Origin: Cyanidioschyzon merolae
Lineage: Eukaryota
Strand: one strand, 5' to 3'
Assembly: GCA_000091205.1 (NCBI GenBank)
Contig: AP006489.2
DNA length: 64,000 nucleotides
Part shown: one piece after another, positions 2,326-54,923 of the stretch
How positions within the stretch are numbered: the first letter of the stretch is position 1
Layout: each line of letters begins with the position of its first letter
Position numbers and translations under genes: made by a program
Notes under the pieces: model-generated
What the model was told of the DNA's origin: nothing
Databases searched by the model: none
What the model saw: the letters and a program-made list of their open reading frames with translations, nothing else

Positions 2326-2874
2326 CACGAACCCGAGTATCAATGCCTGCACCTCGACAGTGCAACCTAGGTCGGCGTCAGCATCTGCTGCTACCGCTGG
2401 TGTATACTTGTGTGCGTGTGTGTGTGTGCAGTTATTGATGCTTGCCCGCGCTAGCCTAGACTTCTATAAAGCAGAACATCACTTTGCATGTGCAGTCGCA
2501 GTTCAAGTATCTGACGCTGAGAGCGGAGCGCCGTACAAACCGCGCGCCGCTCTGTGTTTTCGAAACGACGGCGAGTCACTTTCGATGCTGAGGGCCTGAA
2601 AGCTGCAGCTGCTTCGGGTCTGTTTCGGGAACCGACGCAACGGGTTGTAGGTGTTTCGCTCTGGACTGTCGGGAGGTTTTGCTACCTCAAGGACCTGGGC
2701 GTGGCAGGCGTGATAAGCAGAGCGCTTACCCTTACGCATTGCGTAGTCGCTCTAAAAAACTTGGGGTGTGCTCCAGGTCGAGATTTGTGAACTTGCCGTT
2801 CAAACCAAAGCCGTCAGAATAGCGTGTGGACAGGAAAGCAATACAACGCGACTAGTACCACCACCTAACAAGAG

Positions 2875-5286
2875 ATGAAGGAAGCCTCTCGTTCTAGAGG
2901 GTGCCAGGTGCGGCTTCGAATAGCGTCGCACCTGACATGCACCCGGGTGTACCCCGAGCTTCAGTGGGTACAGCCGCATGTGCTTTTCTCCGGTCGTCAG
3001 GCAGTTTCCCGCAAAGCCAAGGTAGTCAACATTGCGAAGGCGTGGTCGCGAGCCCCCCACAGAATATATGCTGCCTGCCGTCGGAGAAGCGTTGCCAATC
3101 TAGTCTACTGCTGCGCCACCAAGGGACACCAAGAGCACTCCGAAGCACCACCGAGCGATGACGCTTTGAGGGAATATGAAGCGGTGACCAGCACGCCGGA
3201 ACACGACACCAACGATGCCGTCCGCCGGGAGCTGGCGGAAAATCGTTTCAAAGCTGTTCGTGAACGCGTTGCTACGTTAGAGCAGAAACTACAGCACGGC
3301 GAGGCCATTCGCCGCGTTTTGCTAGCAGAGCAGCTGCTGAAAGCGCTACGAAATCCGGAACTCTACGCAAAACTAGAAGCGGTGGGCCGCAGGCATGCCG
3401 CTGAACAGGAAACGCCTTCCAGTGCCAGCTCGGATTCCAAAGCAACCGCTTCTGCAGCTATGAGCTCCGCTGTTGCTGGGGCAGCTGCTACGGAGCTTGA
3501 GCAACCAACAGATGTCGATGCTGGGCGCACTCCTTCTGTCGCAGCCTCTGACGAGAGGATCATGGCACTTGCCCGGATCATTCAGCAAACACAGGGCCTT
3601 CTCGAAGCACTGAGCCAGTGGAAACACTTGCCAGATAGCGTTTTGGCGAAGGCGAAGGAGTTTCGCAAAGAGCTCGGACAAGTTCTCCTTGAGACTGACC
3701 TTGAAACGGTACTAACCACGGGAGGTTCCGTTTCGAGTGCTGGCACCCCAAGCTCTGAAACCAGTTCTCCTGCCGCGAGAGATTTCTTCAACCGCGCAGT
3801 ACGGGCGCTGCGAGGGCGCTCGAGCGGCAAGCCGGCCGTTACAGACGAAGAGCTGGAGAGTATCCTCTCGGCCGCTGCACAAATGCGACGGACAAGTGCG
3901 CTCAAGGCAGAGATGGATCGCATCGTCACTGCCGAAGCCGCAGCTGCGATGGTGGAGGCCCAACGAGCTCGCGACGAAAAGAGCGCTAAGAACACGGGCG
4001 CAACGTACACTCAAGCTTCAGCCCGTCATGCGCAGCATCTCCTAGAGCGCTGTCGTTTGAAGGGACACGAGCTCAGGAGCTGGCTGAAGCATTTTGTTTC
4101 CGACACCTGGCAACGTCTGAATGGTGTCCCGAGCCCGTCACAGGGTTCCAGTGAAATGAGCGAGACTGCGATTGCACCAGCCCCTGTCATGCCGTTCCGC
4201 CAACGCCAAGCGCTGATCTTTAAGCACACTCTGGAAGATCTGAAACCTCTCGAACGAAAACTGCAGGAATTGAGCAAAGAACGCGAAATGCGTCTGCGAC
4301 GCGAGGGCCCTCTCGGCAAGCTGATCCATATTCGCGACCTGCGCGCACTAGACGACCAAGTGAACGCACTTCGTCGACAAATCAGCGTCCGAGTTCTCGA
4401 GAGCGAGATGGAACGCATTTATCTCTATCTCGATGCAGAGCTCGACGCCTCGACTTTGTTTTTCTCGCGGCCTATCAACGACGAACAGGAGGAGATGCTG
4501 CTCATCGCCGAATACGGGTTGCTGGCTCGGCGTCTAGCGGAAATCCAAGTCCTCGTGGATGTCGGTGAGGCGGTGCTCATCGAAGACGACGAGCTTGCCG
4601 ATCTGGCCTCTGACATCCAGTTTCTCAAGTCTCGCCTGGGCATCGGAGAAGACGATGCGTACATGAACCTGGGCTCTGTGGTACTCGATTGGTCGCGAAT
4701 TCGTCAGTATCTGGCGGAGATGTCCCAAAAAGCCAAGGAGGGTGGAGAATTCTACTGGCGAGGCGTTCGCCTTCTCGGAGGTGACATCATGTACAGCCTT
4801 CGACTGATTCAACGAGCAGCCGCAGGTTACACGTTAACACCGCGCGAAGTCCGCACCATTAGGCGAACAGGTCGCGATATCTTGACACTGGTCCCGTTTG
4901 GCATTTTATTGGCACTGCCGCTGACTCCCGTCGGCCATGTCATGGTGTTCTCGTTCATTCAGCGATATTTCCCGAGTTTCTTCCCGAGCACGTTCACGGA
5001 TAAGCGCCAGGAGCTCATGAGACGTTACGAAAGCCTCATGCAGCAAATTTCGAGCCTCGAAAAAGACTCTGCAACCGAGGAGGCTGAGAAAGTCTCGCTA
5101 TTGGCTCGCGCTGCGCCCGAGGAGACACACCTCGCCAGTGACGATGATGATAACGACATCGACGCCGGCACCAGTTACGTCGACAACGAAATCGACATCG
5201 ACAAGCGCAGTAGCGCGTTGGGAAACAGCGCTGGCGAACGTTTGGCAAGTCGCCGCTCGCGAGGCGTCGAGTTTCCGCGCAAGTGA
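2875..5286 (+). CDS. LETM1-domain protein (mitochondrial inner-membrane LETM1/Mdm38-like)
   Basis: 803-aa ORF. The segment FYWRGVRLLGGDIMYSLRLIQRAAAGYTLTPREVRTIRRTGRDILTLVPFGILLALPLTPVGHVMVFSFIQRYFPSFFPSTF matches the conserved LETM1 ribosome-binding/TM region (KxYWxGxKLL...LVPF...P.MLPSTF). An acidic/coiled-coil C-terminus follows. The true start Met may lie downstream of 2875. Confidence 0.55.
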   Translation: MKEASRSRGCQVRLRIASHLTCTRVYPELQWVQPHVLFSGRQAVSRKAKVVNIAKAWSRAPHRIYAACRRRSVANLVYCCATKGHQEHSEAPPSDDALREYEAVTSTPEHDTNDAVRRELAENRFKAVRERVATLEQKLQHGEAIRRVLLAEQLLKALRNPELYAKLEAVGRRHAAEQETPSSASSDSKATASAAMSSAVAGAAATELEQPTDVDAGRTPSVAASDERIMALARIIQQTQGLLEALSQWKHLPDSVLAKAKEFRKELGQVLLETDLETVLTTGGSVSSAGTPSSETSSPAARDFFNRAVRALRGRSSGKPAVTDEELESILSAAAQMRRTSALKAEMDRIVTAEAAAAMVEAQRARDEKSAKNTGATYTQASARHAQHLLERCRLKGHELRSWLKHFVSDTWQRLNGVPSPSQGSSEMSETAIAPAPVMPFRQRQALIFKHTLEDLKPLERKLQELSKEREMRLRREGPLGKLIHIRDLRALDDQVNALRRQISVRVLESEMERIYLYLDAELDASTLFFSRPINDEQEEMLLIAEYGLLARRLAEIQVLVDVGEAVLIEDDELADLASDIQFLKSRLGIGEDDAYMNLGSVVLDWSRIRQYLAEMSQKAKEGGEFYWRGVRLLGGDIMYSLRLIQRAAAGYTLTPREVRTIRRTGRDILTLVPFGILLALPLTPVGHVMVFSFIQRYFPSFFPSTFTDKRQELMRRYESLMQQISSLEKDSATEEAEKVSLLARAAPEETHLASDDDDNDIDAGTSYVDNEIDIDKRSSALGNSAGERLASRRSRGVEFPRK

Positions 5287-6372
5287 CGCAGCGTGCATGC
5301 GAAGACGCGCTCCCGTTGAGGCTTCCCTTTAGCAGAGGCGCGCTACAATGCTCTTTCGCTGTCGTTCCAAGGCGGTTGCCGCCGTCCAGCACTCCAGTTT
5401 GCAACCAGTCTCCGCTTTCGCTGATTCGACGATCGACGAGCCGTCGAGGAGCAAACCACGTGCATAGCCGTTCTGCGGCCTGGTCCAGCGTGACGCATCA
5501 TTCGAGAACACCGGTGATGATAATGGTGATATTCGTCGTCATTAGCGCACCGTAGGTCCGCAGCACCACCAAAGTGATACCCAGGGGTTTACCGCTCTCA
5601 ATGTTGTGCGTCGTTGTCGCGCGGCGGTACCTGCTGCTGCTGCTGCTGTTGCTGGTAACCGAGCGGTGGCGACGTGCTGACGGTATGTGTGCTGCGGTCG
5701 AGAATGCATGTGTGTGTTTGTGTCTGCACGCGTGGCTTCACACCAGGTGTGCTTCAGGAGACTCGAACCGTAACGCGTCGTGCAGCGCTGCGGACGGCAT
5801 CACTTGGGAATGAGCTGCTTGCGAAATGCATCCAACCTGGCAGCGCTGTAGTTGCCTCAGTGACTACCGGCTCTACGGACTCGGGGATGCAGAGGCAACG
5901 CAGGGGCAACTGCGGCTTGTGTGTGCCAAGGATGCATGTGCACTGTCGCTTGCGTTCGAAGCGTCAGTTCGCGTCTCGGCCATGTTCGAGAATGTTTTTG
6001 GTACAAGGACGGGGATCGTTGCCGATGATGATCATCGTCCGGCGTACGAATGCGTCCGCTGACCATGACCCCTTGACCGCGCATGCTGCACTGCGCATTC
6101 CAGGTGAACGTGCTGGAGGCAACGCAGAGAGGCTCGCGACCTGGGGACGGCACCGGAGCCTTGACGACTGGTTGATCCTGCGCTAGCAGCACGGAAGTGT
6201 GCACAGTGAGCGGTGCCAGTGCAGGCCGGCGCACGAGAAACAGCAGGACCTGGTGGCACAACTCGGTTCGAACTGCGCAGCGCTTGCTGCAGGAGCTTGT
6301 TCGGTATCGGAAAGCTGTGTTCGGCGATGCTGTTCACGGCCACACGGGTGGAGAACGGTCGGGGCTTTTGCC

Positions 6373-7727
6373 TTTGTCAAACTAAAATGCGTAACTGACC
6401 TGGTCGCTCTACTCATGTCTTGTGATTATGTTTCCGAACGTTTCATGGGTGTTTAGCCTCGGCATTCGATTTGCAGTCGCAAGGGATGCCGCTTTCATGC
6501 GTCGTTCTAGGATCCGCGGTCGTCGTTTCGGAGTGAGATTCTCGATGCTTTGCTGCTGGAATTCGGAACGATTCCAGAGTGAGGATGAGTCGCGAGGCAG
6601 TGGAACACGACTACGCAACACACGCGATACCATTGTGGTATTCGTATGTACCGGCAACCAGGCTACTCCTTTGCTTGTGTGCGTCGCATGCGCAGATCAC
6701 ACACAGGATTCATGTCTTCTATCGTTCTGTGTTCAGGCATTACGCGGACGAAGCAGTATGCGCTGTTGGATTGGCGAGCAAAAACACTCCATGTCGGGCG
6801 CTGAAACCTCGTTGACGAGTTCATGGCGAATGCTCACTGAACTTGTCCCGTCAACACATCGATCTCATTCGAAACACACACGTCCTACGCTCTGTGTATG
6901 GAGCCATCGACGACACAGCATTCGACAGCAGCATGACACCGGTCACGGGATATGCTCCCAGACGCTGTTGTCTCTTCCGTTTCGATCGAAAAAGGGTCCT
7001 GGAGTCGGAATGCTATGATCACAGCGATCGCTTTCTGCGGAGAATGCTTCGCGACTGAGAAAGAAGCGCGCGTTGCCGGATCGAAGGTTCTCGACTTGAT
7101 CTCGAGCCTCGGTTTCCCTCTCGGTACTTGTTTCATTTCAGAGAGCAACGCTCAGCACAAATCCGCTTGTAGAAAATCGAAAAACAAGCGTTCACGCGCC
7201 TAGAGAGCAGCGTACGAGGTCAAGGCATTGCCCCGAAGAAGCCAGCGGTATCAGGGAACTGCAGTGGGCACGTCAACTGAGGAGCGCATCGCGAGGAGCC
7301 TTCTGTACCCGTCAAGGGCATGGGCTGAGCGATACGGTGAGCGTTCACGCTCTGCAGAGTGGCGCTGCCACCAGGCGGAAATTTGCCGGAGACATGCATT
7401 CGAGTGCCTGACCAAAGTCAAGTGTCGCCGCTGCGAAGCGCGCACCGAGGCTGTTTCCGACAAGTACGAAACCGAGAAGCGAAGCGTGATTCGCGACTTG
7501 AGCCTGTGGACATCGTGCGTCGACACCAGCCGAAGCCCGTGATACCCGGACTTGGAAGCTGTTGTTGTTGTTGTTGTCGTCGTCGTCATGCAGTGACTAC
7601 TGAAAACAGAGCTGGCGAGACGAACACGATCCGCGTACGTAAACGCCGGAAATAAAAGAGGGAATATGCGGCAGTTGCAGACATAGCTTTCAACAACCGG
7701 TATTCATGAGAATGAAGAGAGACCCGA
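6373..7727 (+). mobile_element. Family-A IS607-like element, copy A1 (degenerate serine recombinase + truncated TnpB/Fanzor-like gene, non-coding 3' tail)
   Basis: About 99% identical to 23822..25170, with unrelated flanks. Frame of 6422..7018, nt ~6683-6748: VACADHTQDSCLLSFCVQALRG aligns to the resolvase N-terminus [22 protein letters not shown]. At ~6890: AIDDTAFDSS, in the position of the resolvase LDRLGR motif. In 7228..7542: CLTKVKCRRCEARTE...RDLSL, homologous to the A3 zinc-finger/RuvC-III segment. Many stop codons; no intact ORF. Confidence 0.6.
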
Positions 7728-7839
7728 CCCTTTTGCGAGTTCGCTCGATATACAGGACCTGTCCTATTTCTAGGCTGACACGGGTACGATGTAGCTCGAT
7801 CCTAGTCCTTGTGGTAAAGCAGAGCCGGCGTTACCGGTT

Positions 7840-9330: not shown

Positions 9331-9473
9331 CGAGTGCTAAAGAAGCAGGCACCTACGAACAAGGCACACGAAAGAAGACCAGCAATCCACGCTGTTCGCG
9401 CATCGCGCAATGGATGGCGTACAACAGCGCGCTGCAGCGCCCTGCGTGTCCATGCGACGTGCGACGTGCGTCG

Positions 9474-9515
9474 TACGTCGTGCGTGTGCGTGTGCGTGTG
9501 CGTGTGTTCGAATCG
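9474..9515. repeat. (GTGCGT)n microsatellite
   Basis: gtgcgtgtgcgtgtgcgtgtgcgtgtg, immediately upstream of the squalene synthase start. Confidence 0.8.
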
Positions 9516-9619
9516 GCGCACTGGACGCGCCTTGCCGCGCAGACGCATCGCAGGTGCCATGCGTGGCGCTGTTTTCGGCGGCAGGCGATCGAATTCGCGA
9601 TGCCACAGGTATCCCAGTG

Positions 9620-11050
9620 CGGATCGTAGCTGCATTGTATAGAGGCTATGCATTTCTATTCGTTACTGGACAGCGCAAAATGGACTGCATGAATGCCTCA
9701 GGTCAGTCATAGCACAGTGCGCAGATGGCTGAGGAACACTGAAAGACAGCAAGCGAGAACTGTATGCGCTCTGCGCCAAGAACTGGTATTGTGAAAGGCT
9801 CTAGTGGTCTATGGTAGAAAAACGAACTGTTGATTATCTTCCATGGAAGGCAAAATCGAAGATTGTAGTTACCACGGGCGTCTCTGCTTCTCAACAGCTC
9901 ATTCATTTGGTCCTGCAAGCACTGAGATACAGTTGCAGAAAAAGAGTACCGGTTGAAGCATGGTGGTTTTTCACGGAAATCGCACAGAGAGGCTTCCTGG
10001 AAATTGGGAATCTGTATGAAGCAGAGGAACGTCGGTTTGTTTTTCCAGTTAATGATACTGTGTTCGGATGAAACAGTCGTAGCGTCTATGCGTATTCGTG
10101 GAGCATGGATCCCGTCGTAGGTATGCACGATCGAACTCGAAGAGAACGGGGACATCATCATCGGTTCTAGGTGCAGTGGATTCATTTTTGGCGGCCTCAG
10201 CTTTGGCTCCTAGAGAAGGTTCGCGCATCAGCACAAACCACTTTGTCGAATTATCGAAGAATTTTGCCCTGACGTCTGAGAATGTCCCTCTGTTGCACAT
10301 CGTGCCACTTCACTCTTTCCCTTGCGTTTGGGCTTTTCCCGATTCTATCGGGGAGTAGAGCTGCTTTTCATTCCTTCATACTGAGCGTGATTGAATCCCG
10401 TTGAGGGAGTCGTTTCTATCGTGAATTGTGCGGATCGCTGCACTGGGTGGATCGCCGTAGCTCTGAACATGTGCTAACATACCGCGGCACGTTAGCTCTG
10501 TCTTCCACAAGTCCTTCTCGCTCTGGAAAAGTGCTCACCTATGGGCATGAATGAGTGCATTCATTTGAAGAAATAAATAATCTGAGGGATGCGCTGTAGA
10601 ATGCACTTCAGAAGATCGAGTTGGAGAGACGGCAGCGGAGCGCCTCGGCGCTAGAGGAGCACGGACAGCTGACAGACCACCGAATGGCACCGAGGGCAAG
10701 CGTTGGAGGACTCCTCGAAAATGCGGGTTTAACCAGCGGGAATCAACGCATGGAATGCGTGAACCGAGAGACTTCAACGCCGTGATCAATATCAGAAGAT
10801 ATGCGGTGCGGAGGATGAGACCCGAGGAGCCGCTGCAAACCAACTTTGGGGAGCAGCCTATGAAGCTCGAAGCGTACAAGGAGAAGCTGAAGCCGGTAGC
10901 ACACGGCCCGTCAACGAAAATGTCCGGAGGCTTCTACGGTTCTGTATCCGTGTACCCGGCATGGTCTTGCCACATGTATCGTTTCATTCAACATATTTGT
11001 ACACCTTAGAATAACATTGAACACATCGTGTGCGGACACCGGACTCGGCG
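9620..11050 (+). mobile_element. Family-B IS607-like element, copy B1 (serine-recombinase-like N-terminus + TnpB/Fanzor-like RuvC-III remnant)
   Basis: ORF 9811..10071 contains KIVVTTGVSASQQLIHLVLQALRYS, which aligns to resolvase [22 protein letters not shown] with the catalytic Ser retained. Later segments are ...VELLFIPSY (VdPaYTS-like) and RDFNAVINIRRYAV at 10767..10793 (TnpB RuvC-III DRDxNAAxNI). Homologous over its full length to 25415..26920 and, reverse-complemented, to 32600..33330. Confidence 0.5.
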
Positions 11051-11288
11051 CTACCAGCGCCTGAGCGGCGCAGTGCCTCCTGGCCAAGCACACGGGAACA
11101 AGCGGTCAAGTTCTCATAACTGCGCATCGGCTATTTTTATGAACTGAAGTCTCACTGTCTTGGACTACATAGAGCTGCACTTCTGTCGACGAACGCGCAC
11201 GAGATCCTGTGCCCAGCGCTTTGTCTTAACAAGACTGGCGTCTGCCGCTCGAGGGCTCCGTACCCGCAGACCGCGCTCGTGACACCTT

Positions 11289-23207: not shown

Positions 23208-23821
23208 TCAGGGGCGACTCGGAGTCAGCGCTCTATGATGGCGATGCTGGGCGTACGGACAAGAGTTCCTAAAATGATCCAGGAAAAGTCAGACTGGGAA
23301 CCAGCAGACCTCCAGAAAGAAAACTCTGGAACACCTTACGCTCTCTGCGGAAGCAAGTTCCTCGTTGAAAGGTTCTTGGGCTCAGCGAAGCGCCGCGGTG
23401 TATGCCTCGTGAGAGAACCTCTGCTCCCGTTGGCTCTAGACCAACTTTCGTTCCTCGATGTCTCCAGGAGTAGGGCTTCAAACGGAAGCGCCCTTGAGCT
23501 TCGACGAAGAGAACGTTTGCAGCCGTTTGCTCTGTACCGATCCTCGTGTCTCCTTGTCTTTAGAAAACGCTTCGCGGATCGGTTACCAACCTCTGTCGTG
23601 CAGAAAGCGCTGCGCAGGACTCGTCCCAAGCCGTCTTCGGAGCAGTTCAAGGATACTTGTTTCTGCAAGACCTTGAACGCCACAGTTTATCAACGATCGA
23701 TTCCTACCTCTCGTTTAAGGGTGAAAAGAAGCTCAGAAAACGCCCGGATATATCTGTGATAAACGTGTTTTCCGTAGGCGAGAAATCCGGAAGCGTCTTG
23801 TGCCGCGTTGTCCTATACCCG

Positions 23822-25170
23822 TGTCAAACTAAAATGCGTAACTGACCTGGTCGCTCTACTCATGTCTTGTGATTATGTTTCCGAACGTTTCATGGGTGTT
23901 TAGCCTCGGCATTCGATTTGCAGTCGCAAGGGATGCCGCTTTCATGCGTCGTTCTAGGATCCGCGGTCGTCGTTTCGGAGTGAGATTCTCGATGCTTTGC
24001 TGCTGGAATTCGGAACGATTCCAGAGTGAAGATGAGTCGCGAGGCAGTGGAACACGACTACGCAACACACGCGATACCATTGTGGTATTCGTATGTACCG
24101 GCAACCAGGCTACTCCTTTGCTTGTGTGCGTCGCATGCGCAGATCACACACAGGATTCATGTCTTCTATCGTTCTGTGTTCAGGCATTACGCGGACGAAG
24201 CAGTATGCGCTGTTGGATTGGCGAGCAAAAACACTCCATGTCGGGCGCTGAAACCTCGTTGACGAGTTCATGGCGAATGCTCACTGAACTTGTCCCGTCA
24301 ACACATCGATCTCATTCGAAACACACAAGTCCTACGCCCTGTGTATGGAGCCATCGACGACACAGCATTCGACAGCAGCATGACACCGGTCACGGGATAT
24401 GCTCCCAGACGCTGTTGTCTCTTCCGTTTCGATCGAAAAAGGGTCCTGGAGTCGGAATGCTATGATCACAGCGATCGCTTTCTGCGGAGAATGCTTCGCG
24501 ACTGAGAAAGAAGCGCGCGTTGCCGGATCGAAGGTTCTCGACTTGATCTCGAGCCTCGGTTTCCCTCTCGGTACTTGTTTCATCTCCGAGAGCAACGCTC
24601 AGCACAAAGCCGCTTGTAGAAAATCGAAAAACAAGCGTTCACGCGCCTAGAGAGCAGCGTACGAGGTCAAGGCATTGCCCCGAAGAAGCCAGCGGTATCA
24701 GGGAACTGCAGTGGGCACGTCAACTGAGGAGCGCATCGCGAGGAGCCTTCTGTACCCGTCAAGGGCATGGGCTGAGCGATACGGTGAGCGTTCACGCTCT
24801 GCAGAGTGGCGCTGCCACCAGGCGGAAATTTGCCGGAGACATGCATTCGAGTGCCTGACCAAAGTCAAGTGTCGCCGCTGCGAAGCGCGCACCGAGGCTG
24901 TTTCCGACAAGTACGAAACCGAAAAGCGAAGCGTGATTCGCGACTTGAGCCTGTGGACATCGTGCGTCGACACCAGCCGAAGCCCGTGATACCCGGACTT
25001 GGAAGCTGTTGTTGTTGTTGTCGTCGTCGTCATGCAGTGACTACTGGAAACAGAGCTGGCGAGACGAACACGATCCGCGTACGTAAACGCCGGAAATAAA
25101 AGAGGGAATATGCGGCAGTTGCAGACATAGCTTTCAACAACCGGTATTCATGAGAATGAAAAGAGACCCA
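23822..25170 (+). mobile_element. Family-A IS607-like element, copy A2
   Basis: About 99% identical to A1 (6373..7727) over about 1.35 kb. The same start (tgtcaaactaaaatgcgtaactgacc) and end (...ggtattcatgagaatgaa(a/g)agagaccc) with unrelated flanks. The ORF differences between copies are non-synonymous and random, so the element is non-coding. Confidence 0.6.
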
Positions 25171-25414
25171 AACTTTAGGCTGTACACCCGTGTTCGAGTA
25201 CCTGCTCCATGATATCACGAGATACGTGTATTCTCTACATCGAAGAAGGCACACAACGGTTTACGAGCCATGAAGCATGAAACGAGATCGTGCGTTCGGC
25301 GGAATCGTACATATTGCTTTAGTCTTTCAACGCAACGATATTGCATATCCGAATCATGTCATCGAATGCTTTTTCGCGGAGTATATCAAGAGATCGAAAT
25401 CACGATGCAATGCA

Positions 25415-26920
25415 CCATACAGATCGTAGACGAATTACCAATAAAACATATGCGTTACAGAACAGTGCAACGAGGACTGCATCCCTCCTTCTGTTCAGTT
25501 ATACCACAGGACGCAGATGAGAGAAGAACACAGAAAGAAACAAGTATATTTGCTCCGGCCCCAAAACTGGTATTCTTAACGTGTGCTTGCTGTAAATGGT
25601 AGAGAACAAGCAGTTGAGCACCTTTTACGGAAGGCAAAAGCAACGACACTAGCTACCACCGGCGCCTCTGTTTCTCTACAGCTTGTTCGTGTGGCACTGA
25701 AAACACTGGGATAGAGTCGCAGAAAAAGGGTGCTAGTTCATGAATGGCCATTTTCCATAGGAACCACGACTACAGCGTTCCTGGAACGTCGCAATTGGTA
25801 TTAGGGACCGAAAAGGCGACCTGTTTTCATCAGTAGATGACACTTGCTTCGGCCGAAACGGTCGCAGCGGCTATGGGTATTTGCGGAGCACGGAGCCCGT
25901 GGTATGTACAATCGAACTCCAAGAGGACTAAGACATCATTATCTGTTCGACCTGCATTGGATACATTTGGCGGCATCAGTTTCCCCCGTAGAGAAAGCTC
26001 ATACTACAGCACCAACCACTGTGTCGAATTATTGAAGACCTTTTCTCCTGAATGTCTCTTGACGCCCTTGTATTGAACGTTGCATTTCAACGTTCCGCTT
26101 GCGTTCGAGCTTTTGTCGATTCTATCTGGGTAGAGCTGCTTTTCGATCCTCCGTGCTTAGCGTGTTTCAACCCCATCGAACGAGTCTTTCGTATCCTGAT
26201 ACGTAATGATCGCTCCACTGGACGAAGCATCGAAGCTTTGAACACGCGGTGACATTCCGGGACACCTGTCGTCTTTCTTGTACAAGTGCTCCTCTCGCAG
26301 GGAACGCCCTCACATGAGGGCATGAACAAGTGCGTTCATTTTGAAGAAATAAAAAATCCAAGGGAAAGGTATCGAAATGGAACACGTGGATGCTGGATGC
26401 CCGACGTCGCCGGGTTCGGCGAAAAAAACGAAAAAAATCCTCTTCACGCCGACCAACGAGCGATAAAGCACAACTGACGAAGAATAAGGGCAAGAGGGCA
26501 GGTAAGCGAGCTCGGCTGGGCTTGCCCGATTTCAGGATGACGAGGCTGTGGTGCCCCTGAGGGCACGAGTTCCAGCAATCCTCGCATTGGTTCGTTCAAC
26601 CTCAGGCAATCACCGCGTAGACTTCGTGAGCCCGGACTTTAACGCTGTTCTTAATATCACAAGATGTACAGTGCTGAAGACGAGACTCGAGGAGCTGATG
26701 CGAGCCAGCTTGGTGTGGCAGCCTCGAATACTCGACGTATCCAAGAAGACCTGAAACCGATAGCAGGCGGCCGGTCGGAAAAAAAAGCCGGCAGGCATTT
26801 GGACGTCGCCATACGTTCGCCCTACATGTTCGTGAGCGTTTGTTCGTTTCCGAGACAATGCACTCCCAGTCTCAACACAAGTCGTGCGCTTGGAACAGGG
26901 TTTTTTTTCAAGTAGAGAAA
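25415..26920 (+). mobile_element. Family-B IS607-like element, copy B2
   Basis: DNA homologous to B1 along its length. KAKATTLATTGASVSLQLVRVALKTLG corresponds to the serine-recombinase motif. WVELLFDPPCLAC is a VdP..C..C zinc-finger-like segment. GNHRVDFVSPDFNAVLNITRC at 26632..26658 is RuvC-III-like. The 3' tail is homologous to the B1 and B3 tails. Confidence 0.5.
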
Positions 26921-30734: not shown

Positions 30735-31299
30735 GAGCTCCCGAAGTGCGCAGCGCTGTCGGTGCGACGAGCTTCACTGCACGTTCAAGGCAAAACGGTT
30801 GAACTGTGGCGCAACGCCCTACCGGTAGCGGTTTGAAACCGGGGCATCCAGGTGGCCCGATTTGGCTTGACCTTTTCTGTCAGGTTGATACAATGATTTA
30901 TCATAAATGTCAGGCTTTGTTTCAGCTGCGTTGCCTGACGGCTGAATTTGGGATGATTGCCACGACATGGCCGGTGCGCTGCTCAATGAGAGAGAACTCA
31001 TTCGCGACCAATGCGTTTCAAAGGCAGCGGCGCTAGCGCCTGTGGAAAACGCTACCCCCGAACGAGTCACGAGAGGGATCGACGGAGGCTCCGTATTATC
31101 CTGTGAGAATGCACTAAAGTCGGCGGAACGTAGCGGTGTCGAAAGAGGAAGGCTGGTGTTGGCCCTGGACAGCGGTACCAACTGCGCAGCTGAGAGACGA
31201 CGGCTGGAGTCGTCGATTTGGCAACGTAGGAGTAAACCTGCGCGCATGGTAGAATCAGCGACCAGAACCACGTCCAACTGAATGGGAACACTGAAGTCT

Positions 31300-32560
31300 T
31301 TGTTCTGTTTCTGCTTGTCGATTTTCCCGGTGTTTTTTGGTGTCGACCCTGCACTTTTGGAAGTGAAGCAAGAAAGGCACACAGCTTACCAGTTAGTTTA
31401 CGTTTCCCGGTTATGTTTTTGACGTGACTCGTTTCGCGCTTTGCCGCTGGAACTCGTGACATCCTGGAACAACGCTGCGCAAAACTACCAGAATCATCAT
31501 TCCATGCTCATGCACGAGCCTCCACGGTTCACCTTCGCTTTCCAAGTAGCATACGCAAATCACGCAGTGTTCAAGTATTTGATCTTTGTGTTTCACTGCA
31601 AATCGTGGGCGCTTCAATTCGTGTCGCTGGACTGAAGATGACCAGTACACGATATCGTTGATTGAAGACCTTTTCACATGCTCATGCCGAAAGTTCATTG
31701 AACTGTTCGAGTCGAACAATGAACTCTGCTCGAAAGACAAATCCCTCTCTATTTCCGGTCGTCGAAGGATCAGCATTCGACTGCAGCATGATACCGCTGA
31801 CGGGATATGATCCCAGAGGCGCCGGTCTCTTCCGTTCACAAACGGAACAGCGTCTTGGACTTAGGCTTTCGCGATGGCAACGATCGCTTCCAGTAGAGAC
31901 ATCGTCATCGCTTGCCACAGAGGGAGCGTAGGCGGATCGAGATTTCTCGACCCGTCCTCCAGCACAGGATTTTTTTCCGATACCCGTTTCATCATGGATA
32001 CCATCGCGTTTCACAAATCCTGTATTGACTAGCACGGCGGATGCCTGTACGTCCAGCTGGCAGCTGCGTATTCGCCGAGGAGATCACCTACGCGAAGCTC
32101 GTGTTTGTAGATTGCAGCGCTGGACGCGGAAACGGAGTGCATCGAGGAAAGGTATCTGTACTACGCCAGGTCATGCACCGAGCGATGAAGCACGCTTTTT
32201 CGCGCTACAGGTCTGCTCTCGAAGGAGGTGTTGTAGTGGACATACGGGAGCTCCTGATCACAGACAAGTGTCCCAGCTGCAAATGGCGTACCGAATCCGC
32301 ATGCAGAGAAGATCACCATCGCAAGCGAAGCGTAGGTCGTAACCGCAGCCTATGAGTGGAATGTCGTAGAGAACTTGCGGAAGCAGCGGACTCGGGACTT
32401 GAACGCCGCATTCAGTGTCGTTCGACTGCCGAAACCCGGCCTGACGAGAAACGCGAGACCGGCATATTGCAAGGCGCGAACAAGATAGAGGAGAAGGTAG
32501 CAGCGGTTTAGACAACCCGTAAAAGTTGGTATTCATCATGGTGAGAAGAGACCCAAACGT
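31300..32560 (+). mobile_element. Family-A IS607-like element, diverged copy A3 (best-preserved TnpB C-terminal motifs)
   Basis: DNA homologous to A1 throughout, about 75-80% identical. ORF 32041..32355 reads ITYAKLVFVDCSAGRGNGVHRGKVSVLRQVMHRAMKHAFSRYRSALEGGVVVDIRELLITDKCPSCKW. This corresponds to TnpB RuvC-II (ivfEdLnvkgM...WgeFrrqLeYKAew.Gk.vv.vDp.yTSQ.CS.CG). RDLNAAFSVV at 32393..32422 is RuvC-III RDxNAAxNI. The end motif ggtattcatcatggtgagaagagaccc is at ~32527. Confidence 0.6.
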
Positions 32561-32599
32561 TTGCGTGTACGCATGTGGTAGGTTTCCTGACCCGTTCTC

Positions 32600-33330
32600 A
32601 TCTGACATGGATGCAGAAGAACCGTGGCCTTCTCGCAGGTATGCGACAGCAACTGCGCGTGCTAGCGGTCCAGCTTACTTGTCCCGATCTCACACGAGAA
32701 ACAGTTGATCAACGGAAGGAAAATCTCTCGCGTCCGTACAAGGTAAATATATGCAACCACGCAGAGGACGCCTCCAAGCTTTTTTTTCTGAACTGGCCGA
32801 CCGCTATCGGTTTCAACTTATCCAGGCATCACTTTGAACCAGAGAGGTTGTCCCACGAAGTTTACTCGCCTCAGATCCTCGGGTCTCATCTTGAGCACTG
32901 CACATCGTCTGGTATTCATAGCAGCGTTAAAGTCTCGGTTCACGAACTCTATGCGGTGATCGCCTCTGGTTGAACTCACCAATGCGGGGATTGTTAGAAC
33001 TCGCGCCCTCTGTGCCACTAGAGTCTTCTGAGCGTCCCGTCGGGGAAACAGCTTGTCTCGTCTATCTCCCCTGTTCTTCTGCTTCTTCTTTTTCGTCACT
33101 TGCTCTGCTTCGCTCCATGGTCGGCAAGAAGAAGATTTTCGTCGAGTTTTTGTCGACCCTGGTAATGAAGGGCCCTCCAGGATTCCCTACTTCCATGTCC
33201 ATCCCTTTCCCTAGAGTTTTTTATGTTTGAACTTGAACGCATTCGATCCCGTCTATTATAAACCGCGAAAAAGCATTTGATGACACCCACCTTCACGTGG
33301 AACACAACTGAGGTAAAAGTCTGCATGCGT
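32600..33330 (-). mobile_element. Family-B element, truncated copy B3 (minus strand), abutting A3 tail-to-tail
   Basis: ORF 32818..33099(-) contains GDHRIEFVNRDFNAAMNTRRCAVLKMRPEDL (RuvC-III-like, 32911..32937). The 3' tail (32600-32820) reverse-complemented is homologous to the B1 and B2 tails (gaaaccgatagcggtcggcc...). The 5' part is lost to truncation before the Utp6-like gene. Confidence 0.45.
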
Positions 33331-36744: not shown

Positions 36745-37727
36745 TCGACTCCATACCAGCGCCGAAATCGCCGCCGCCGTCGTCGTTGCTGCAGCTGCCG
36801 CCTCCCATCGATTGATTTCTTTCTTTCATGGACAAAACTGGTACACTGGCCAGCGTTCTCTGATTGTACGCTTTGCTTTTTCATCGCACAGGGAAGCATC
36901 CGTCAAACCGCTTACGTCAGAGTTCCATGACCCATACTTCTTCTCGGATACACTGTTCATTTCATAGGTTCTATCGTGTGTCGAGAGCGTGCCCTGAGCG
37001 TCCGCGAGAGCGCCTATAGCGCCGATACGGATGCAGCAGGGGGCCCGAACGACTCTTCCATGTCACCGAGGGCGTCAGCTCGGGGTGTGTCTCAGTCGAC
37101 GCTTACATGAATCGCATGGCTCGTTACTGCATCGACAGCCGGTGTATGCCGGCATGCCGTCACTACACGACGCACTTGAGAAGCTCGCCATTCAGCACGG
37201 AACCTGGGTGGTGCGTGACCCTTTGGCAATCAATCAATCATCTGTCTGTGTATCTGTGTGTCTGTGTATCTGTTTGTCTGTGAGCGTACGTGCGTGTCGA
37301 ATCGGTCACCGCTTCGCAATGCCGGCTACCGCTCGACGCCGTCTTGTTCATTGCTGCGCCGATCGTTTAACATGCGTGCGCATCCAGTTGGACGAACTTT
37401 CCACCTTGAAGGTAGCCTGTGGGTTTTTTGGTCATCACCAAGCGTCGTGGGTCAAAAAGACGTCCGACAGGTACCAGGTTTGCGCTCTATGGGGGCGATC
37501 GCCCCGTGCAGCCCCGAATGAAAATCCAGCGCGATCGGCTCCTGGGCGCGGCGGCGCGGCGCGCAACGCTGCGCGATCGATCATTTTTGAATCCCGTGGC
37601 AGGTCCCGGAGTCCCGGATAGCGGTGTCTCCTCTACTGTTTGCTCAGCAGGGGCGTTCCTCGGGAACTCGCGTACAAACCAGTAGCGCTCGCTGAGCAGC
37701 AACTTTTGTGATTGTGCTGAATCACTA

Positions 37728-44670: not shown

Positions 44671-44749
44671 AGACGTGCAGTTCGACACCTGGTACACCAA
44701 CTCAGAAGACTTCGAAACGGGTCATTCAACGTCGGTGCACTCATATACG

Positions 44750-45990
44750 TTTGCACTAATGTCCTAGTGTCCACAAAAAGAGCATTTGCAGGCTTGTTCT
44801 TTGGCTGCTTTCTTTTTTCCCTCTAATAAATTCGACCTGACAAAGCACCCGTTCGTCGTGTAACTTCAGCCCCGTTCTTACCATTACATGGATGTTAATC
44901 GTAGCCTGCAAGTTCTGATTTTGCAGCTTCCTGCTGGTTACATGCATTTCGGGCACTGGTGGAAGTGGCGATCAACGATTCACTTGCCAGTTTCGTTCTC
45001 TTGATCCAGAGGCTGAGTACGGCATTCGCTGTGGTGACACGCGTATGTGATTAGGTATTCGCAAATGCCCGCCACGACGCCTCCTTCGAGCGCCGCCCTG
45101 TAGCACATGAATTCTTGCTGCCTGGTTCGGTACAAGAGCCCGACGAGTCCTGTGCACTCACCTGGATGCCGTCCTCTGGTTCCACGCGTGGAGCCGTGCC
45201 CCGCGATCAGGGGCATGTTCGGGGCGATCCCGTCAGCGAGGAATTTGTATGCTGCCTGTGCATATGCACGATGTACCATGCCACAGAGGATTGCGGAATA
45301 TGATGTTCTCCATGATGGAGCGCGTACTGGATGGCAACATTCAGGCTGGAGAACAAGTCGATAAATGTCGGTCCGTGGACGAAGCTCCTTCGTCCACAGT
45401 GATAGTGCATCTGCCATTGCAAGCTATCGTTGTGATGCCAGAGACCCGAGTCCGACATCCCTTTCCGCGCAAACTTAACAGACGGGAGCGCGCCTCGGAC
45501 CACATCCTGTGAAAGCATATCATGTCGCAGTCGAATCTGGTATCGTCGGTAGCCACATGAAAGAGGAGATTTTCCTCGGGAACGGAACCAATTATTTGCT
45601 TTGACAATGTCTTCGAAATTGCTGCATGATCTTGTGTACGAGTCGCCAGAACACGATGTCCAGCAACGTGCGTCGTCAATCCAGGGACGCGAACACCAGT
45701 GCCTACAAGCTGTGTTAAGTCGAAAAGCCGAATCCCCGAAGCATACCTCATTTGGGCATGCTGGACGCGGGGTACGGAGAATCATGGATGCCTGTACGAT
45801 TAAAAAACTGAATCATGATATCGAATATGTGATGCAATCCTGTTTTTCACGGATATCGCGAATCAACTTGATGTATTGACTTTACGAACGCCCGCTGCGA
45901 AGAATGCAACAGACCAATTCGATAAGTCGACCACGCATCCTAGAATAACGTTTGGATCCGCAAGCCCTTTTCGTCGCATAGCATCAATGC
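44750..45990 (-). mobile_element. Family-A IS607-like element, diverged copy A4 (minus strand)
   Basis: ORF 45341..45751(-) has VATDDTRFDCDMI (equivalent to A1 AIDDTAFDSSMT). ORF 44980..45417(-) has FMCYRAALEGGVVAGICEYLITYACHHSEC (equivalent to A3 YRSALEGGVVVDIRELLITDKCPSC). Downstream are FHQCPKC (second CxxC) and LQATINIHVMVRTGL at ~44867..44908 (RuvC-III NAAxNI...GL). The 3' tail is homologous to the A1 tail. Confidence 0.55.
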
Positions 45991-46564
45991 AATGCCGTCC
46001 ATCTCAGACAAAAGTTTAGAGAAAGCTCGATGACAGGAACGTTACAAGCATCTCAGTGTTCCATGGGAGTCTGACAACCGCAGAGAGCGCTTCAATGAAT
46101 GGAGGCGATCGACGCTGACATGCGAATGCCGCCCGCAATCAAGCTATCAGCGACTTGTTTTCCGCAACCGCGTCCACAAGCCACAAGTTCGGGATCTCTG
46201 CCTCTCTGAAAAATACCAGTTCAGTTGATCTATGCATGTTGTGAGGTATCGAACCTGAAAACGCTTGCCACACGCGAAGAAACACACTGCAACACACTCC
46301 TTCGGGATGCTTCGGGTATTGAGCGGCGCGCCGGGATCGTTACGGCGCCAGCGCGGCGTCTTGTTCGACACGCCTCACAGCGTCTGAACGTTGTAACTTT
46401 TCGTGTCTTTTGACGAGGTCTGTGGGACTTTTGTGGGCTGCAGAACTCGGAGTGGTTTCTTCCGGGTGCCCTGAGGTCGACCGCAAGGTGTCTTTTTTCA
46501 GGACGACGGGACTCGAGCGCAGTCGTTGCTTCGGTTTTTTTTGTGGTGCACAGCAGCTGCTCGC

Positions 46565-49499: not shown

Positions 49500-50800
49500 C
49501 CAGACGCTCATGCAACCAAGTCAGAGGATGATGAGACCGGTCTACCAGCTCCGACTTGCATACTAAAGTGCAGGTCTGCTTCTTATGTCATCAGTACCGT
49601 CCATTGGGGGCTATTTTTGTCGAACGCTCCATTTTTCGCCGCTCGTGCATCCGGTTCTTGAGGAGCCGGTCGCTGACGTCGCTCCAGCTCCGGTGTCAGC
49701 TGTCGAAAGCTGATCATCGGAGCGTCGAGGTCACGATTCTGTTGCGTTCGACTGTTGTCAAGGTGCTCTATGCACGGATGGTGTCTGCGATTCACGAGCA
49801 CTCTGGTATGCACCCTCGATACCCGCTCCGCGGCTGCTATGCTTGGCTATGGCCAAGTCCTTCCATATGTCCACCATATCCGCTGGTCAGAGCGTCAGTC
49901 TGAGCTGAACGAACGCTTGCTTTTTCGCCCAGCATATATCCCTGAGGATTACAGAGAGAGCATGCATCACTCGATGCGCTTCTCTGTCAACGCACCCGGT
50001 GCCGTGCTCCGGGATCGCGGGCTTCTTCTGCGGACATCTCCTCGGCGAGGACATTGTCTTATGCACGCGCAAGCGCATGCTGTTCCATTCGATAGAGGAT
50101 ATGTGGAATCCGACGTCGTCCATGACGATACATGTACCGAGAGGAAAATCCAGGCTGGAGGCCAAACCCGTGAATTTGTATCCGTCTCCTGCTTTATACC
50201 TGGGAATCGATGTCGCACGCTCCACTAGCAGCGATCGCTGGAATGAAAAAAAAGCACGGCTCCAGGGCGCTCTTCACCGGAAATAGAAGAGAAGGAAGTC
50301 ACAGGAAGCGTATCCCCTGAACGGCATCACATGGCTGTCGAATGCAGTTTCGTCGGTAGATAGAAACACGGGAGGATTTGTCTTTCGAACGGAATCGATT
50401 ATCTGACGTTACACGATCAGTGAATTTTCCGGATGATCTTGTGATCAAGTCGTCAAGTGACCATGTGCAGTTTTTGTTCCTCGAAAATCGAGCAGCACAA
50501 GTCGCTGATCCCACGCGCTCCCCTGAAGCAGAAGAATCGACGAATAGAAAAATACCTGATTAGAGTATGGCATACGTAAGGAAAGCAGAAGCGTGGAGAC
50601 ACTTACCTCCTTGTCGAATCGTTATATGCCGGTTACATTTAGGAACTCTTGTTCGATAGCTTTGTGAATCATTCTGATTCCAGCGACGTAATGAATTCCA
50701 ACGAAAAGGCATCGAAAGAGCCATTTTGAAAATACGACCGAGCATCCTAAAATAACGTATGAAGCCGTACGCCCCGATTGCTCCACTTGGACCATGGATG
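49500..50800 (-). mobile_element. Family-A IS607-like element, diverged copy A5 (minus strand, internal deletion)
   Basis: The + strand 50400-50800 is homologous to 45600-45990, the 5' part of A4. ORF 49887..50225(-) has CIVMDDVGFHISS (equivalent to AIDDTAFDSS). ORF 49583..49813(-) has LVNRRHHPCIEHLDNSRTQQNRDLDAPMISF. This is homologous at DNA level to the A3 LITDKCPSCKW...RDLNAAFSVV, with RuvC-III-like at ~49706..49738. Confidence 0.45.
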
Positions 50801-51722
50801 CTATGCATCTGACACTAGTTCCAGAAACAAGTCACAAGGTAGGAATAAAACACCCAGGTCAGTGTCCCATGGTTATCAAACACGGCTGTCGCTTGACCTC
50901 CTAGCGCTGAGCAGCGCAACCACACGACAAGGCCCCCAGACGTGTATCGCTAGACCGCTTTGAAGGCTACTGGTCTGTCTCCGCGGCATTCGAGCCCAGC
51001 CCTGCATACACGCCTGTGGCGCTCTCGCGGGCTAGGGTCTCAGGTCAATACCGAGCGGTATGCGTAGGAGCAATATCACGAACGATGCCCGGAACGCTAC
51101 ACTAGCAACGCCCTCTGAGATCCAGGGAAACTTGGTTTTTTTTCGAGTCCAAGACGTAGCATCTGTCACTGATGGATCTCCTGTTGCTCTGTGCGGTAAA
51201 ACCTGGTGCGCTGTTGTGTCTGCCGTTTACGTAGGCATCTCTTCGTGATTAGGGAGTAGGAATGCTACGCAGAAAGCACCTTCCTGAAGCATGGCGTTCG
51301 CTGCACGACGAGTTTCTGAAGCGAAGCTACCGGCGCATAGGCGTACCAGGTATGCACCAAAAGACTCCAAAAACGCTCCATTAATTCTAGATTTTCTTCA
51401 TCAAACGCTCATTCTGGGTTAGAGATCGTCTCTAGATCCGTGTCGACGGACACGGAACACTGCTGCAGACCCGCGTGTTCTTTCCGCAACACCTGTTGAC
51501 GTGCTGGAAGGCCTCGCTGAGGCTGCGTAACTGGCGACACGCGTCGCCGCTTGAACAGCGTTCCTAGCAGTAAGCTCGTTTCCAATTGATCGGTTTCATG
51601 GAACTGCAATTCAGACCGAGTACCGTTGCCTAAAACGAGCACTCGTTTACCTGGCTCCGCCCTATGGATGTCTTTTCGTGAAAACGCGCGTCCACAAGCG
51701 CCCACTGCCTTGTTCGCGCGCT

Positions 51723-54700: not shown

Positions 54701-54923
54701 ATCGGCTCTGAGCCTGCTCCTCTCCTGCCGCTGCCTCTGGTTGAGTTTGACCCTGACCGGGTGCCGAGCTTTCGACGAATCGCTCTTTGGAGCTGCTGCG
54801 GCTGCCGCGTCTGCTCGGCTGAAGTGCCCCGACTTTCGAACCGGTGCGAGCAAGCTTTGCAGACTTGGGCGCTGAGGCGGCCTTGGCACTCGCGTCCACT
54901 GAGCGACGCTTGCGACTGGTCAT
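51723..54923 (-). CDS. Large low-complexity nuclear-type protein (possible Sds3/BRMS1-like central domain)
   Basis: 1066 aa, Ala/Ser/Pro/Arg-rich with poly-Asp. One structured region: ELVKQTIGALAAETPKEYADSFALAHMFIADLVDLERRRYALENRIQRNFELQQAYLHKYAQARFREVEHQYLVAEESLRERL. The long in-frame ORF in a GC-rich region could be partly artefactual, but the compositionally protein-like core supports a gene. Confidence 0.35.
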   Translation of the reverse strand: MTSRKRRSVDASAKAASAPKSAKLARTGSKVGALQPSRRGSRSSSKERFVESSAPGQGQTQPEAAAGEEQAQSRLRRNLRQTSSTRERAKGHSSQGKAASVHMPAAEQHQSADEDSSSSEQLAQRSGKDAMAVLVGLRRSRRSGQASQSAAKRAARASTRALTERTAEKQTASGSASVSETSIGTDHDAGDDGDDDDDDDDEAFSSESTLNASRAETTGRTSRAAPSANAPGAARSTAPASGPCEGSVAEDENAASIAALSVEERAKQQLELERALARVREEAELLVRIAQTLPSFAVEDTGGQPVVSAPVAVNEDAAADAAADTATVPKTQSNEGSISTDEMVRANSCDGTNGLEMAQQQVMELVKQTIGALAAETPKEYADSFALAHMFIADLVDLERRRYALENRIQRNFELQQAYLHKYAQARFREVEHQYLVAEESLRERLLEAAFQRQRRYRIACQLDRDPMVLFGQPPVMIPPGFAGVPYQLLPARPRGASPAAMGTAANLTPEESLLLLERRPVSLGLEPGEASDDLREVQRAITALRRRAKAGNAHAGRAPGASGNETATDGQLLTSAGRAPSGPTGRQTGARARASNRQSTGARHSHERSSIAETGTQSSAHRAPAAGTAAIGNGSLSAAGDLGIDWNDQKQRSRLAVGLVQRDQPAHRLGARPGNATRELPPEQPRTGAVGRSATTTVATAASTTPTSGHVAAPKAARGSAGAHDAGTSSDARSTGKRGRPRKRPPLEPTGAGDRGSNAGVPPRPSTNKVRKPPTSARDKRPVHPPPEPENDVSSSSSSTAAPRSNVGTVSSTVHPGFEHNAEQAGRSLASSPAMTRPLKSESAPNESAADKAPDSSVAKSDTSSGRVAGAAAPLQTQHASTREANQFAVEAVAPAPVPDNAPERSASPRTPQVSEPRVNTGDAGHPGTALSPGTPDIAAAQPSAVTAVPADEKPIPMPEFPVGGDPDAFVSRGTLFYRGMQLHRGDQVAVRVLPKGSTSGAVYVGLASGSPEAQADNQAAQVFHGPLVSLNVKELHVRDAEHRVYVTWLQSGRAELVHLAGHQA
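54330..54365. repeat. (CAT)n microsatellite (coding, poly-Asp on the minus-strand gene)
   Basis: catcatcatcatcatcatcatcatcaccatcgtcacc. Confidence 0.8.

Follow-up and report, generated by a model that had tools for sequence, protein, structure and literature searches.

We examined a 64,000-nucleotide (nt) stretch of nuclear chromosome 7 of Cyanidioschyzon merolae 10D, a eukaryote belonging to the red algae. In this stretch, hereafter the window, two members of a family of decayed transposons, family A, share a tract of about 1.35 kb at 99.1% identity. The tract is strictly internal to the two elements, A1 and A2, and leaves out the outer 4 nt at the 5′ end and the last 59 nt at the 3′ end. 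We consider that the tract was probably made by one ectopic gene-conversion or template-switch event between two old, resident and dead relics, and we put the probability of this reading at roughly 60%. The original prediction, made from the sequence without database searches, had explained the near-identity by recent mobilisation in trans, and had seen in it a recent burst of an otherwise old family. That the near-identity is real and far beyond chance was confirmed; mobilisation and burst were not supported by the data described below.

The shared tract and the ends of the elements

Self-BLASTN of the window gave one outstanding pair, 6375-7725 (A1) and 23822-25169 (A2), both on the plus strand, with nine mismatches and three gap positions in 1351 columns. 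The gap positions correspond to one 3-nt indel, a single GTT unit at 7560-7562, within the (GTT)n(GTC)n microsatellite seen in the sequence and the pair alignment at 7560-7587 (plus strand). The substitutions are located at window positions 6583, 6881, 6891, 7137, 7140, 7162, 7476, 7603 and 7717. Both copies of the tract start with TGTCAAAC (6375 and 23822) and end with GAGACCC (7725 and 25169), and an environmental orthologue of A2 (contig L014) covers the full tract. The start and end sequences, the handful of differences and the peptide difference KHTRPTLCVW/KHTSPTPCVW had all been correctly predicted, whereas the predicted coordinates overshoot the tract by 2 nt on either side in A1 and by 1 nt at the end in A2. 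A1 and A2 are also non-autonomous pseudogenes as had been proposed, being non-coding relics with stops and frameshifts common to both. A hint that three of four substitutions are synonymous in one A1 frame was dropped because the numbers are tiny and most of the differences are private to A2 of 10D.

Using nhmmer and a family hidden Markov model (HMM), five full-length copies of about 1.4 kb were found in the window. A1 as a whole element occupies 6371-7784 (plus strand, 1414 bp), as determined from the layout of the ends and the comparison of terminal inverted repeats (TIRs), the family HMM matching 6367-7792. A2 occupies 23818-25228 (plus strand, 1411 bp), as determined from nhmmer, the family HMM and the end layout. 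The other three, identified by nhmmer, multiple alignment and the family HMM, are the old full-length copies A3 (31261-32621, plus strand; 53-54% identical to A1 and A2), A4 (49505-50893, minus strand) and A5 (44686-46087, minus strand). In the multiple alignment, all pairs except A1/A2 are 51-55% identical in the body. A tract of 99.1% identity within such a family indicates a recent copy event, and the family itself is old, as are A3 to A5; these parts of the original prediction hold, and the B copies that it had listed exist as well. Orientation and context relative to the neighbouring genes vary among the five A copies. Codon-position periodicity of conservation gave no signal among the A copies, as expected under neutral decay, and a survey of open reading frames (ORFs) and domains found no intact transposase or Fanzor ORF in the window and no recombinase domain among the window ORFs.

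The ends of the elements are inverted repeats of about 12 nt with TA flanks, TA followed by CCCGTGTCA at the 5′ end of A2 and at the 3′ end of A1. The 5′ end of A2 reads TA and then CCCGTGTCAAAC, with TA at 23816-23817 and again at 25229-25230. This end matches the reverse complement of the 3′ ends of A1 (CCCGTGTCAGCC), A3 (TCCATGTCAGAT) and A4 (ACCAAGTCAGAG). The 5′ end of A1 reads CCTT and then TGTCAAAC, and its 3′ end reads CTGACACGGG and then TA (7785-7786). The 3′ TIR of A1, in reverse complement TA followed by CCCGTGTCAGCC, is the best-preserved 3′ TIR, whereas that of A2 (reverse complement CACGTATCTCGT) is decayed. The TIRs are short and decayed in some A copies, and neither A1 nor A2 has two good ones, the outer bases of the 5′ repeat being decayed in A1 and the 3′ repeat in A2. 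Inspection of the junctions for a target motif or a duplication had been suggested: of the four ends of A1 and A2, three have TA (A2 5′, A2 3′ and A1 3′), and other ends have TG or CA. A general search for longer target-site duplications at the A copies gave nothing consistent, and a comparison of each 5′ flank with its own tail gave a duplication only in A2 (p = 0.017), which was not consistent across copies.

The 5′ boundary of the tract is located 4 nt inside the TIR, where A1 has CCTT and A2 has CCCG. At the divergence of the tract (0.67%), two differences among 4 nt would be expected with a probability of about 3 × 10-4. At the 3′ side, the final 100 nt of the tract have 99/100 identities and the following 59 nt have 38/63 in an optimised pairwise alignment, or 47% in the multiple alignment, so that the 3′ tails, including the whole 3′ TIR, are 47-60% identical. 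These tails, 7726-7784 in A1 and 25170-25228 in A2 (both plus strand), are residual old 3′ ends: including them raised the score of an HMM made only from A3 to A5 by 13.9 and 26.4 bits, respectively, and none of 300 random-tail constructs reached the total score of the real A1 or A2. DNA upstream of the elements added nothing to the family score. The predicted lack of relation between the flanks is therefore true upstream and incorrect downstream, where 59 nt at both loci are homologous to the 3′ end of the family. Because the tails are family-homologous in both A1 and A2, the tract ends inside the element. Neither solo tails nor solo heads were found elsewhere in the window, indicating that the tail is part of the element, and the idea of the tail as a separate target motif was rejected for want of solo tails in the window.

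The two loci in other strains and in outgroups

A scan of metagenomes with the 3′-terminal 26-mer of the tract detected Cyanidioschyzon populations 98.6-99.4% identical to 10D. Seven contigs were obtained, all from the A1 or the A2 locus, with no third flank type. The only near-identical copies in the environmental populations are those at these two loci, which does not agree with a recent burst. The junction between tract and tail at 7725, AGAGACCC followed by GACCCTTTTGCG, was identical in nine of the nine A1 orthologue contigs examined; therefore, the event is older than the common ancestor of these strains. The contigs from JGI that contain the gene for squalene synthase (SQS) end 127 nt into the tract, the length of one assembler k-mer, and other contigs end 29-210 nt into it.

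Six of the nine A1/A2 differences are private to A2 of 10D, the environmental A2 copies having the A1 base, indicating that A1 and A2 were almost identical at the common ancestor of the strains. The rate of change was determined for the A2 tract, the sole copy with full-length orthologues. Orthologous A2 tracts differ by 0.97-1.26% between strains, and other non-coding DNA by 0.65-1.34%. Most coding sequence differs by 0-0.46% (0.96% in one partial comparison), and the rate of the A2 tract is about three times that of most coding sequence. The A2 tract evolves at the neutral rate.

Two details of the substitutions are described here. The substitutions private to A2 of 10D at 24584, 24587 and 24609 fall within 26 nt of each other, a spacing that points to one multi-nucleotide mutational event; matching bases, which could mark a donor, are absent from the family copies in the window. 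At site 7717, 8 nt from the tract boundary, A is found in contigs L005, L006, L007, L009 and L010 and G in 10D, L008, L012, L015 and L017, and the orthologous site of A2 always has A. An interpretation of this site as a shared polymorphism from ongoing conversion was replaced by the simpler one of a derived G in one A1 clade.

In the outgroups, Cyanidiococcus yangmingshanensis and a more distant cyanidialean contig, the genes for SQS and LETM1 at the A1 locus (locus 1) are still convergent neighbours. The spacer between them is 674 bp and 148 bp in the two outgroups versus 1654 bp in the window, and no A-family sequence was found in either 21-kb outgroup locus. Therefore, A entered locus 1 within the Cyanidioschyzon lineage, although the outgroups give no view of locus 1 immediately before the copy event. 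The empty orthologous sites that had been sought are present to this extent; the closer strains examined, 99.0-99.4% identical, all carry the tract at both loci.

Origin of the tract

On our preferred reading, A1 and A2 would be old, independently resident dead copies, located 17.4 kb apart on the same chromosome in the same orientation. Not long before the sampled strains diverged from their last common ancestor, a single non-reciprocal transfer would have placed about 1.35 kb of the interior of one relic over the other, in register, leaving the outermost 4 nt (5′) and 59 nt (3′) of each relic untouched. Ectopic gene conversion may have been the route, or else a double template switch, guided by microhomology, in the course of repair or replication. 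The junctions would fall at short islands conserved in the family, the TIR core TGTCA and AGAGACCC, and such a position is what microhomology-guided switching would favour. As in a conversion tract, the sequence of high identity lies within a longer homology of lower identity, with 59 family-homologous nt on the 3′ side and 4 nt, two of them different, on the 5′ side. In C. merolae, homologous recombination is efficient, and a marker allele has been shown to undergo gene conversion (PMC3764038).

Several observations weigh against this reading. Old family copies share about 52% identity, a divergence far beyond the reach of ordinary Rad51-dependent conversion, and if the overwritten relic was as diverged as the surviving tail, the event would have needed microhomology or short conserved islands, not long homology. 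Only 4 nt of old sequence are left at the 5′ side, and a tract almost flush with the 5′ end of the element would equally be expected from a defined molecule that was mobile or copied. The count of young copies covers only the window and the environmental contigs. No strain or species in the pre-event state was found, a further SQS variant belonging to the same strain level, and the older body was seen directly at neither locus. In addition, A1 of 10D is located near the root of the A2 orthologue tree, with 2-3 private changes versus 6-10 per A2 lineage (contigs L011 and L014); this could be due to chance, to a lower mutation rate at locus 1 or to later exchange between the copies.

The mobilisation originally predicted assumes that A1 or A2 is a new insertion of a non-autonomous element, recently mobilised through a transposase or recombinase that an intact copy elsewhere supplied in trans, perhaps together with TnpB or Fanzor. 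The 99.1% identity over 1.35 kb, the unrelated upstream DNA and the unoccupied A1 site in the outgroups are consistent with it, and the TIRs, TA flanks and transposase remnant of the family make it possible in principle. A DDE transposase acting in cis or in trans, however, moves a segment from TIR to TIR, and a fresh copy would share both termini at the identity of the source. The tract, by contrast, contains nothing of the 3′ TIR and starts only after the outer 4 nt of the 5′ one, A1 has the outer 5′ bases CCTT and A2 a decayed 3′ TIR, two differences in the outer 4 nt have the low probability given above, and the 59-nt tails are both family-derived at 47-60% identity. The copy event was thus not an end-to-end transposition. 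In the environmental populations the young sequence was found at two loci only, and the window lacks an intact transposase ORF. We regard mobilisation in trans as quite improbable. What was found is essentially the outcome that the original prediction itself had set against mobilisation, namely a single near-identical pair whose identity is probably due to gene conversion, with no sign of a new insertion. The main rival, although unlikely, is that a chimeric or aberrant molecule was inserted, in which case one locus would have lacked a full old copy beforehand. Such a molecule may be made by a template-switch rebuild in gap repair, by use of a cryptic internal 3′ end, or by a templated insertion in double-strand break repair beside an older fragment, and chimeric DNA transposons from interrupted gap repair are well known. 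It would explain the start of the tract almost flush with the 5′ end, and it avoids classical conversion between copies too diverged for it. Extra coincidences are needed, however, to obtain an in-register family 3′ end at both loci and two copies neither of which has two good TIRs, and in the window neither solo tails nor a source for either of the two tails was seen.

The alternative offered by the original prediction, purifying selection on a non-coding function (for example that of an RNA or a regulatory module), has nothing in its favour beyond the identity itself and the uniform length of about 1.4 kb of the family copies. The A2 tracts, however, differ between strains as much as the neighbouring non-coding DNA, the other family copies are about 52% identical, the contexts and orientations of the five copies differ, and a search of Rfam gave no credible match. 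We consider selection extremely improbable. Near-identical repeats are a classic cause of mis-assembly, but both unique junctions recur in independent assemblies from metagenomes and SRA, one contig running through the whole of A2, which makes an artefact of the reference assembly a practically negligible explanation. A pair of long terminal repeats (LTRs) or solo LTRs, and likewise a Helitron, were rejected, as the ends are TIRs and host genes (SQS, RPC1 and a Sel1-repeat gene) lie between the copies.

Near-identity of transposon copies is usually read as recent activity. In A1 and A2 it does not reach the element ends, so that the pair is uninformative as to an active transposase, and ages of families estimated from pairwise identity would be misleading in such a case. 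If one relic overwrote the other, the pair would illustrate how sequence can pass ectopically between very old repeats where the genome is compact and recombines homologous DNA efficiently; the phenomenon is an ordinary one, and the genome has been well studied. In addition, direct repeats of 1.35 kb at 99% identity flank SQS and RPC1, both presumably essential, which is relevant to the engineering of this region by homologous recombination.

Class of the family, neighbouring sequences and known systems

Domain matches were obtained only with the family consensus, the weighted majority of the A copies read across two frame changes. The consensus matched DDE_3 (PF13358) at profile positions 3-94 with E = 8.3 × 10-5 and 22.9 bits, below the gathering score of 28.6, and its C-terminal 95 residues matched Cas12f1-like TNB (PF07282), the zinc-ribbon/RuvC-III module of TnpB and Fanzor, with E = 9.1 × 10-5, also below the gathering score. 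In A1, the putative DDE_3 transposase remnant is located at 6894-7164 (plus strand), where the motifs VYGAIDDTAFD and CFISESNAQHKS are broken by stops and a frameshift. The Fanzor/TnpB-like C-terminal remnant is located at approximately 7350-7600 (plus strand), with LTKVKCRRCE, then SC, and a degenerate RD..AA motif. Apart from the Pfam matches, the transposase assignment is based on hhalign and that of the C-terminal remnant on BLASTP and hhalign. When the consensus of A was compared with the mariner transposases of Pythium ultimum PUl-1 and PUl-2, using sequences from the supplement of PMC3627910, hhalign aligned 225 colinear columns (E = 0.02) and BLASTP gave E = 4 × 10-4. The motifs of A and PUl are in register: VAIDETAFD with IALDEAAFF, CFIMENIAFHKS with VLLDNCATHHA, and IAPKKPAIAG with LPPYSPQLNPVE. 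The C-terminus of A aligned with three Fanzor1 C-termini at an hhalign probability of 77% (E = 2 × 10-5) and with that of Chlamydomonas Fanzor1 by BLASTP at E = 7 × 10-7.

Six-frame translations of the single copies A1, A3, A4 and A5 gave no Pfam match. PDB sequence searches with a stitched A1 peptide and a four-copy profile gave nothing, and that with the A consensus gave one chance-level match to an unrelated small protein (E = 0.54). A protein database search with the A1 frame returned only the self-match from the A2 locus, one with a five-sequence A profile returned no homologues, and exact look-ups of two A1 ORFs and the LETM1-like ORF returned no recorded match.

On the basis of the two Pfam matches, both of them sub-threshold, the alignments above and the TIRs, we assign A to the DNA transposons of Tc1/mariner/IS630 type, as a decayed family that retains a Fanzor-like C-terminal remnant and is probably descended from a mariner-type element that carried a Fanzor gene. 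The predicted connection to TnpB survives in the Fanzor/TnpB-like C-terminal remnant. Its frame does not: an IS200/IS605/IS607-type TnpB element was rejected, considering the TIRs and TA flanks, the presence of only a TNB/RuvC-III-like C-terminal remnant, the lack of a recombinase domain among the window ORFs and the eukaryotic host, and the family appears to be of the TIR/TA, DDE_3 type. Family A thereby gains a class, and it matches neither CMe-1A nor TE-N2_CMe, the two C. merolae families with which it was compared by sequence or description.

CMe-1A is a known Fanzor1 repeat of C. merolae with about 150 copies and a 3169-bp consensus (Bao & Jurka 2013, PMC3627910). A 253-copy interspersed repeat with weak similarity to a protein of shrimp white spot syndrome virus was described earlier (Nozaki 2007, PMC1955436), and from the agreement in size and in the weak similarity to a viral protein we infer that the two are the same. 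Viral contigs gave no match to the 5′ end of A. Like A, CMe-1A is found in the intergenic graveyards of this genome and has Fanzor-type C-terminal motifs (NRDxxAA). Comparison of the CMe-1A consensus and its 734-aa Fanzor1 with the A copies by nhmmer, blastn and tblastn gave no similarity apart from one 12-residue motif, and a resemblance between the termini of A and CMe-1A, first seen by eye, was not significant when compared. In the window, the CMe-1A consensus matched only the B copies (10589-10945, 26328-26808 and 33346-32725) and 36831-37102. Judging from these matches, the relatives of CMe-1A in the window are the B copies, not A.

The B copies (9500-10985, 25292-26850 and 33346-32725, the last on the reverse strand) are composite, with about 0.9 kb containing a second, unrelated DDE_3 remnant. 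In B2 this remnant is located at 26076-26216 (LLFDPPCLACFNPIERVF) and has a weak Pfam match (E = 0.061). The DDE_3 piece lies between matches to CMe-1A positions 764-862 and 869-1070, followed by a match to 2840-3103, the Fanzor1 C-terminus. This order hints that the CMe-1 Fanzor1 gene, too, was once tied to a mariner-type transposase. The solo fragment at 36831-37102 (plus strand) corresponds to positions 5-273 of the CMe-1A consensus, the 5′ part of which was named TE-N2_CMe by Bao and Jurka.

The ORFs of the window include the RNA polymerase III largest subunit (RPC1), SMC2, SQS, mitochondrial EF-G, a synoviolin-type E3 ligase and a LETM1-like protein; four of the encoded proteins are identical, residue for residue, to proteins of C. 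merolae 10D, whose nuclear genome is compact and intron-poor. A1 and A2 are separated by 16 kb containing SQS, RPC1 and the Sel1-repeat gene. In both outgroups SQS, LETM1 and RPC1 also lie next to one another, joined in one of them by the Sel1-repeat gene. In both outgroups, a DnaE-like gene (PHP/DNA_pol3_alpha) is located between SQS and RPC1 (L019, 4639-9393; L020, 4906-9048), and the same interval of the window (9331-11288) contains only the B1 repeat. The RPC1-Sel1 block is inverted in outgroup contig L020 relative to the window. The LETM1-like gene appears split, the ORF at 2875-5286 (plus strand) ending inside LETM1_RBD (profile positions 1-64 of 229) and a second ORF following at 5674-6186; this may be one of the rare introns of C. 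merolae or a frameshift, and the Cyanidiococcus orthologue is likewise called in two pieces. A 1066-aa ORF at 51723-54923 (minus strand) matched no Pfam family at E ≤ 0.001.

Among the known systems close to family A are the mariner/Tc1-type elements carrying Fanzor1, such as PUl-1 and PUl-2 (Bao & Jurka 2013, PMC3627910). The DE..F, DN..H and PPYSP-type motifs are colinear, the C-terminus can be aligned with Fanzor1, TIRs and TA flanks are present, and the order is transposase and then Fanzor end. A is shorter (1.41 kb versus about 3.6 kb for PUl-1 and PUl-2), its TIRs are about 12 nt versus 24-33 nt, at most the last 90 or so residues of the Fanzor-like protein are left, and all A copies are dead. 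The IS630 insertion sequences of bacteria share with A the DDE_3 transposase (a putative remnant in A), the probable TA target, the short TIRs and a length of about 1.1-1.4 kb, whereas A differs from them in its eukaryotic host and its extra Fanzor-like C-terminal segment, and has no intact ORF for placement in a tree. Class II elements of C. merolae were noted to resemble bacterial transposases most (Nozaki 2007, PMC1955436). A might also belong to a second, much older mariner-plus-Fanzor lineage, the overwrite being the footprint of nuclease-triggered 'homing' repair, in which a break made at a relic by a Fanzor/TnpB-type nuclease or by a transposase would be repaired from the paralogous copy by homology or microhomology. 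We think this very doubtful; if true, it would mean that dead transposon copies can be rejuvenated without transposition.

Ectopic gene conversion has been described for dispersed repeats such as yeast Ty, human Alu and L1, and segmental duplicates. As in such cases, A1 and A2 have a near-identical tract in otherwise diverged homologues, unchanged flanks and apparently no new insertion site, and the partners are close together on the same chromosome in the same orientation. Unlike in classical conversion, the partners were presumably about 52% identical and the tract extends to within 4 nt of the 5′ end of the homology, for which switching guided by microhomology fits better.

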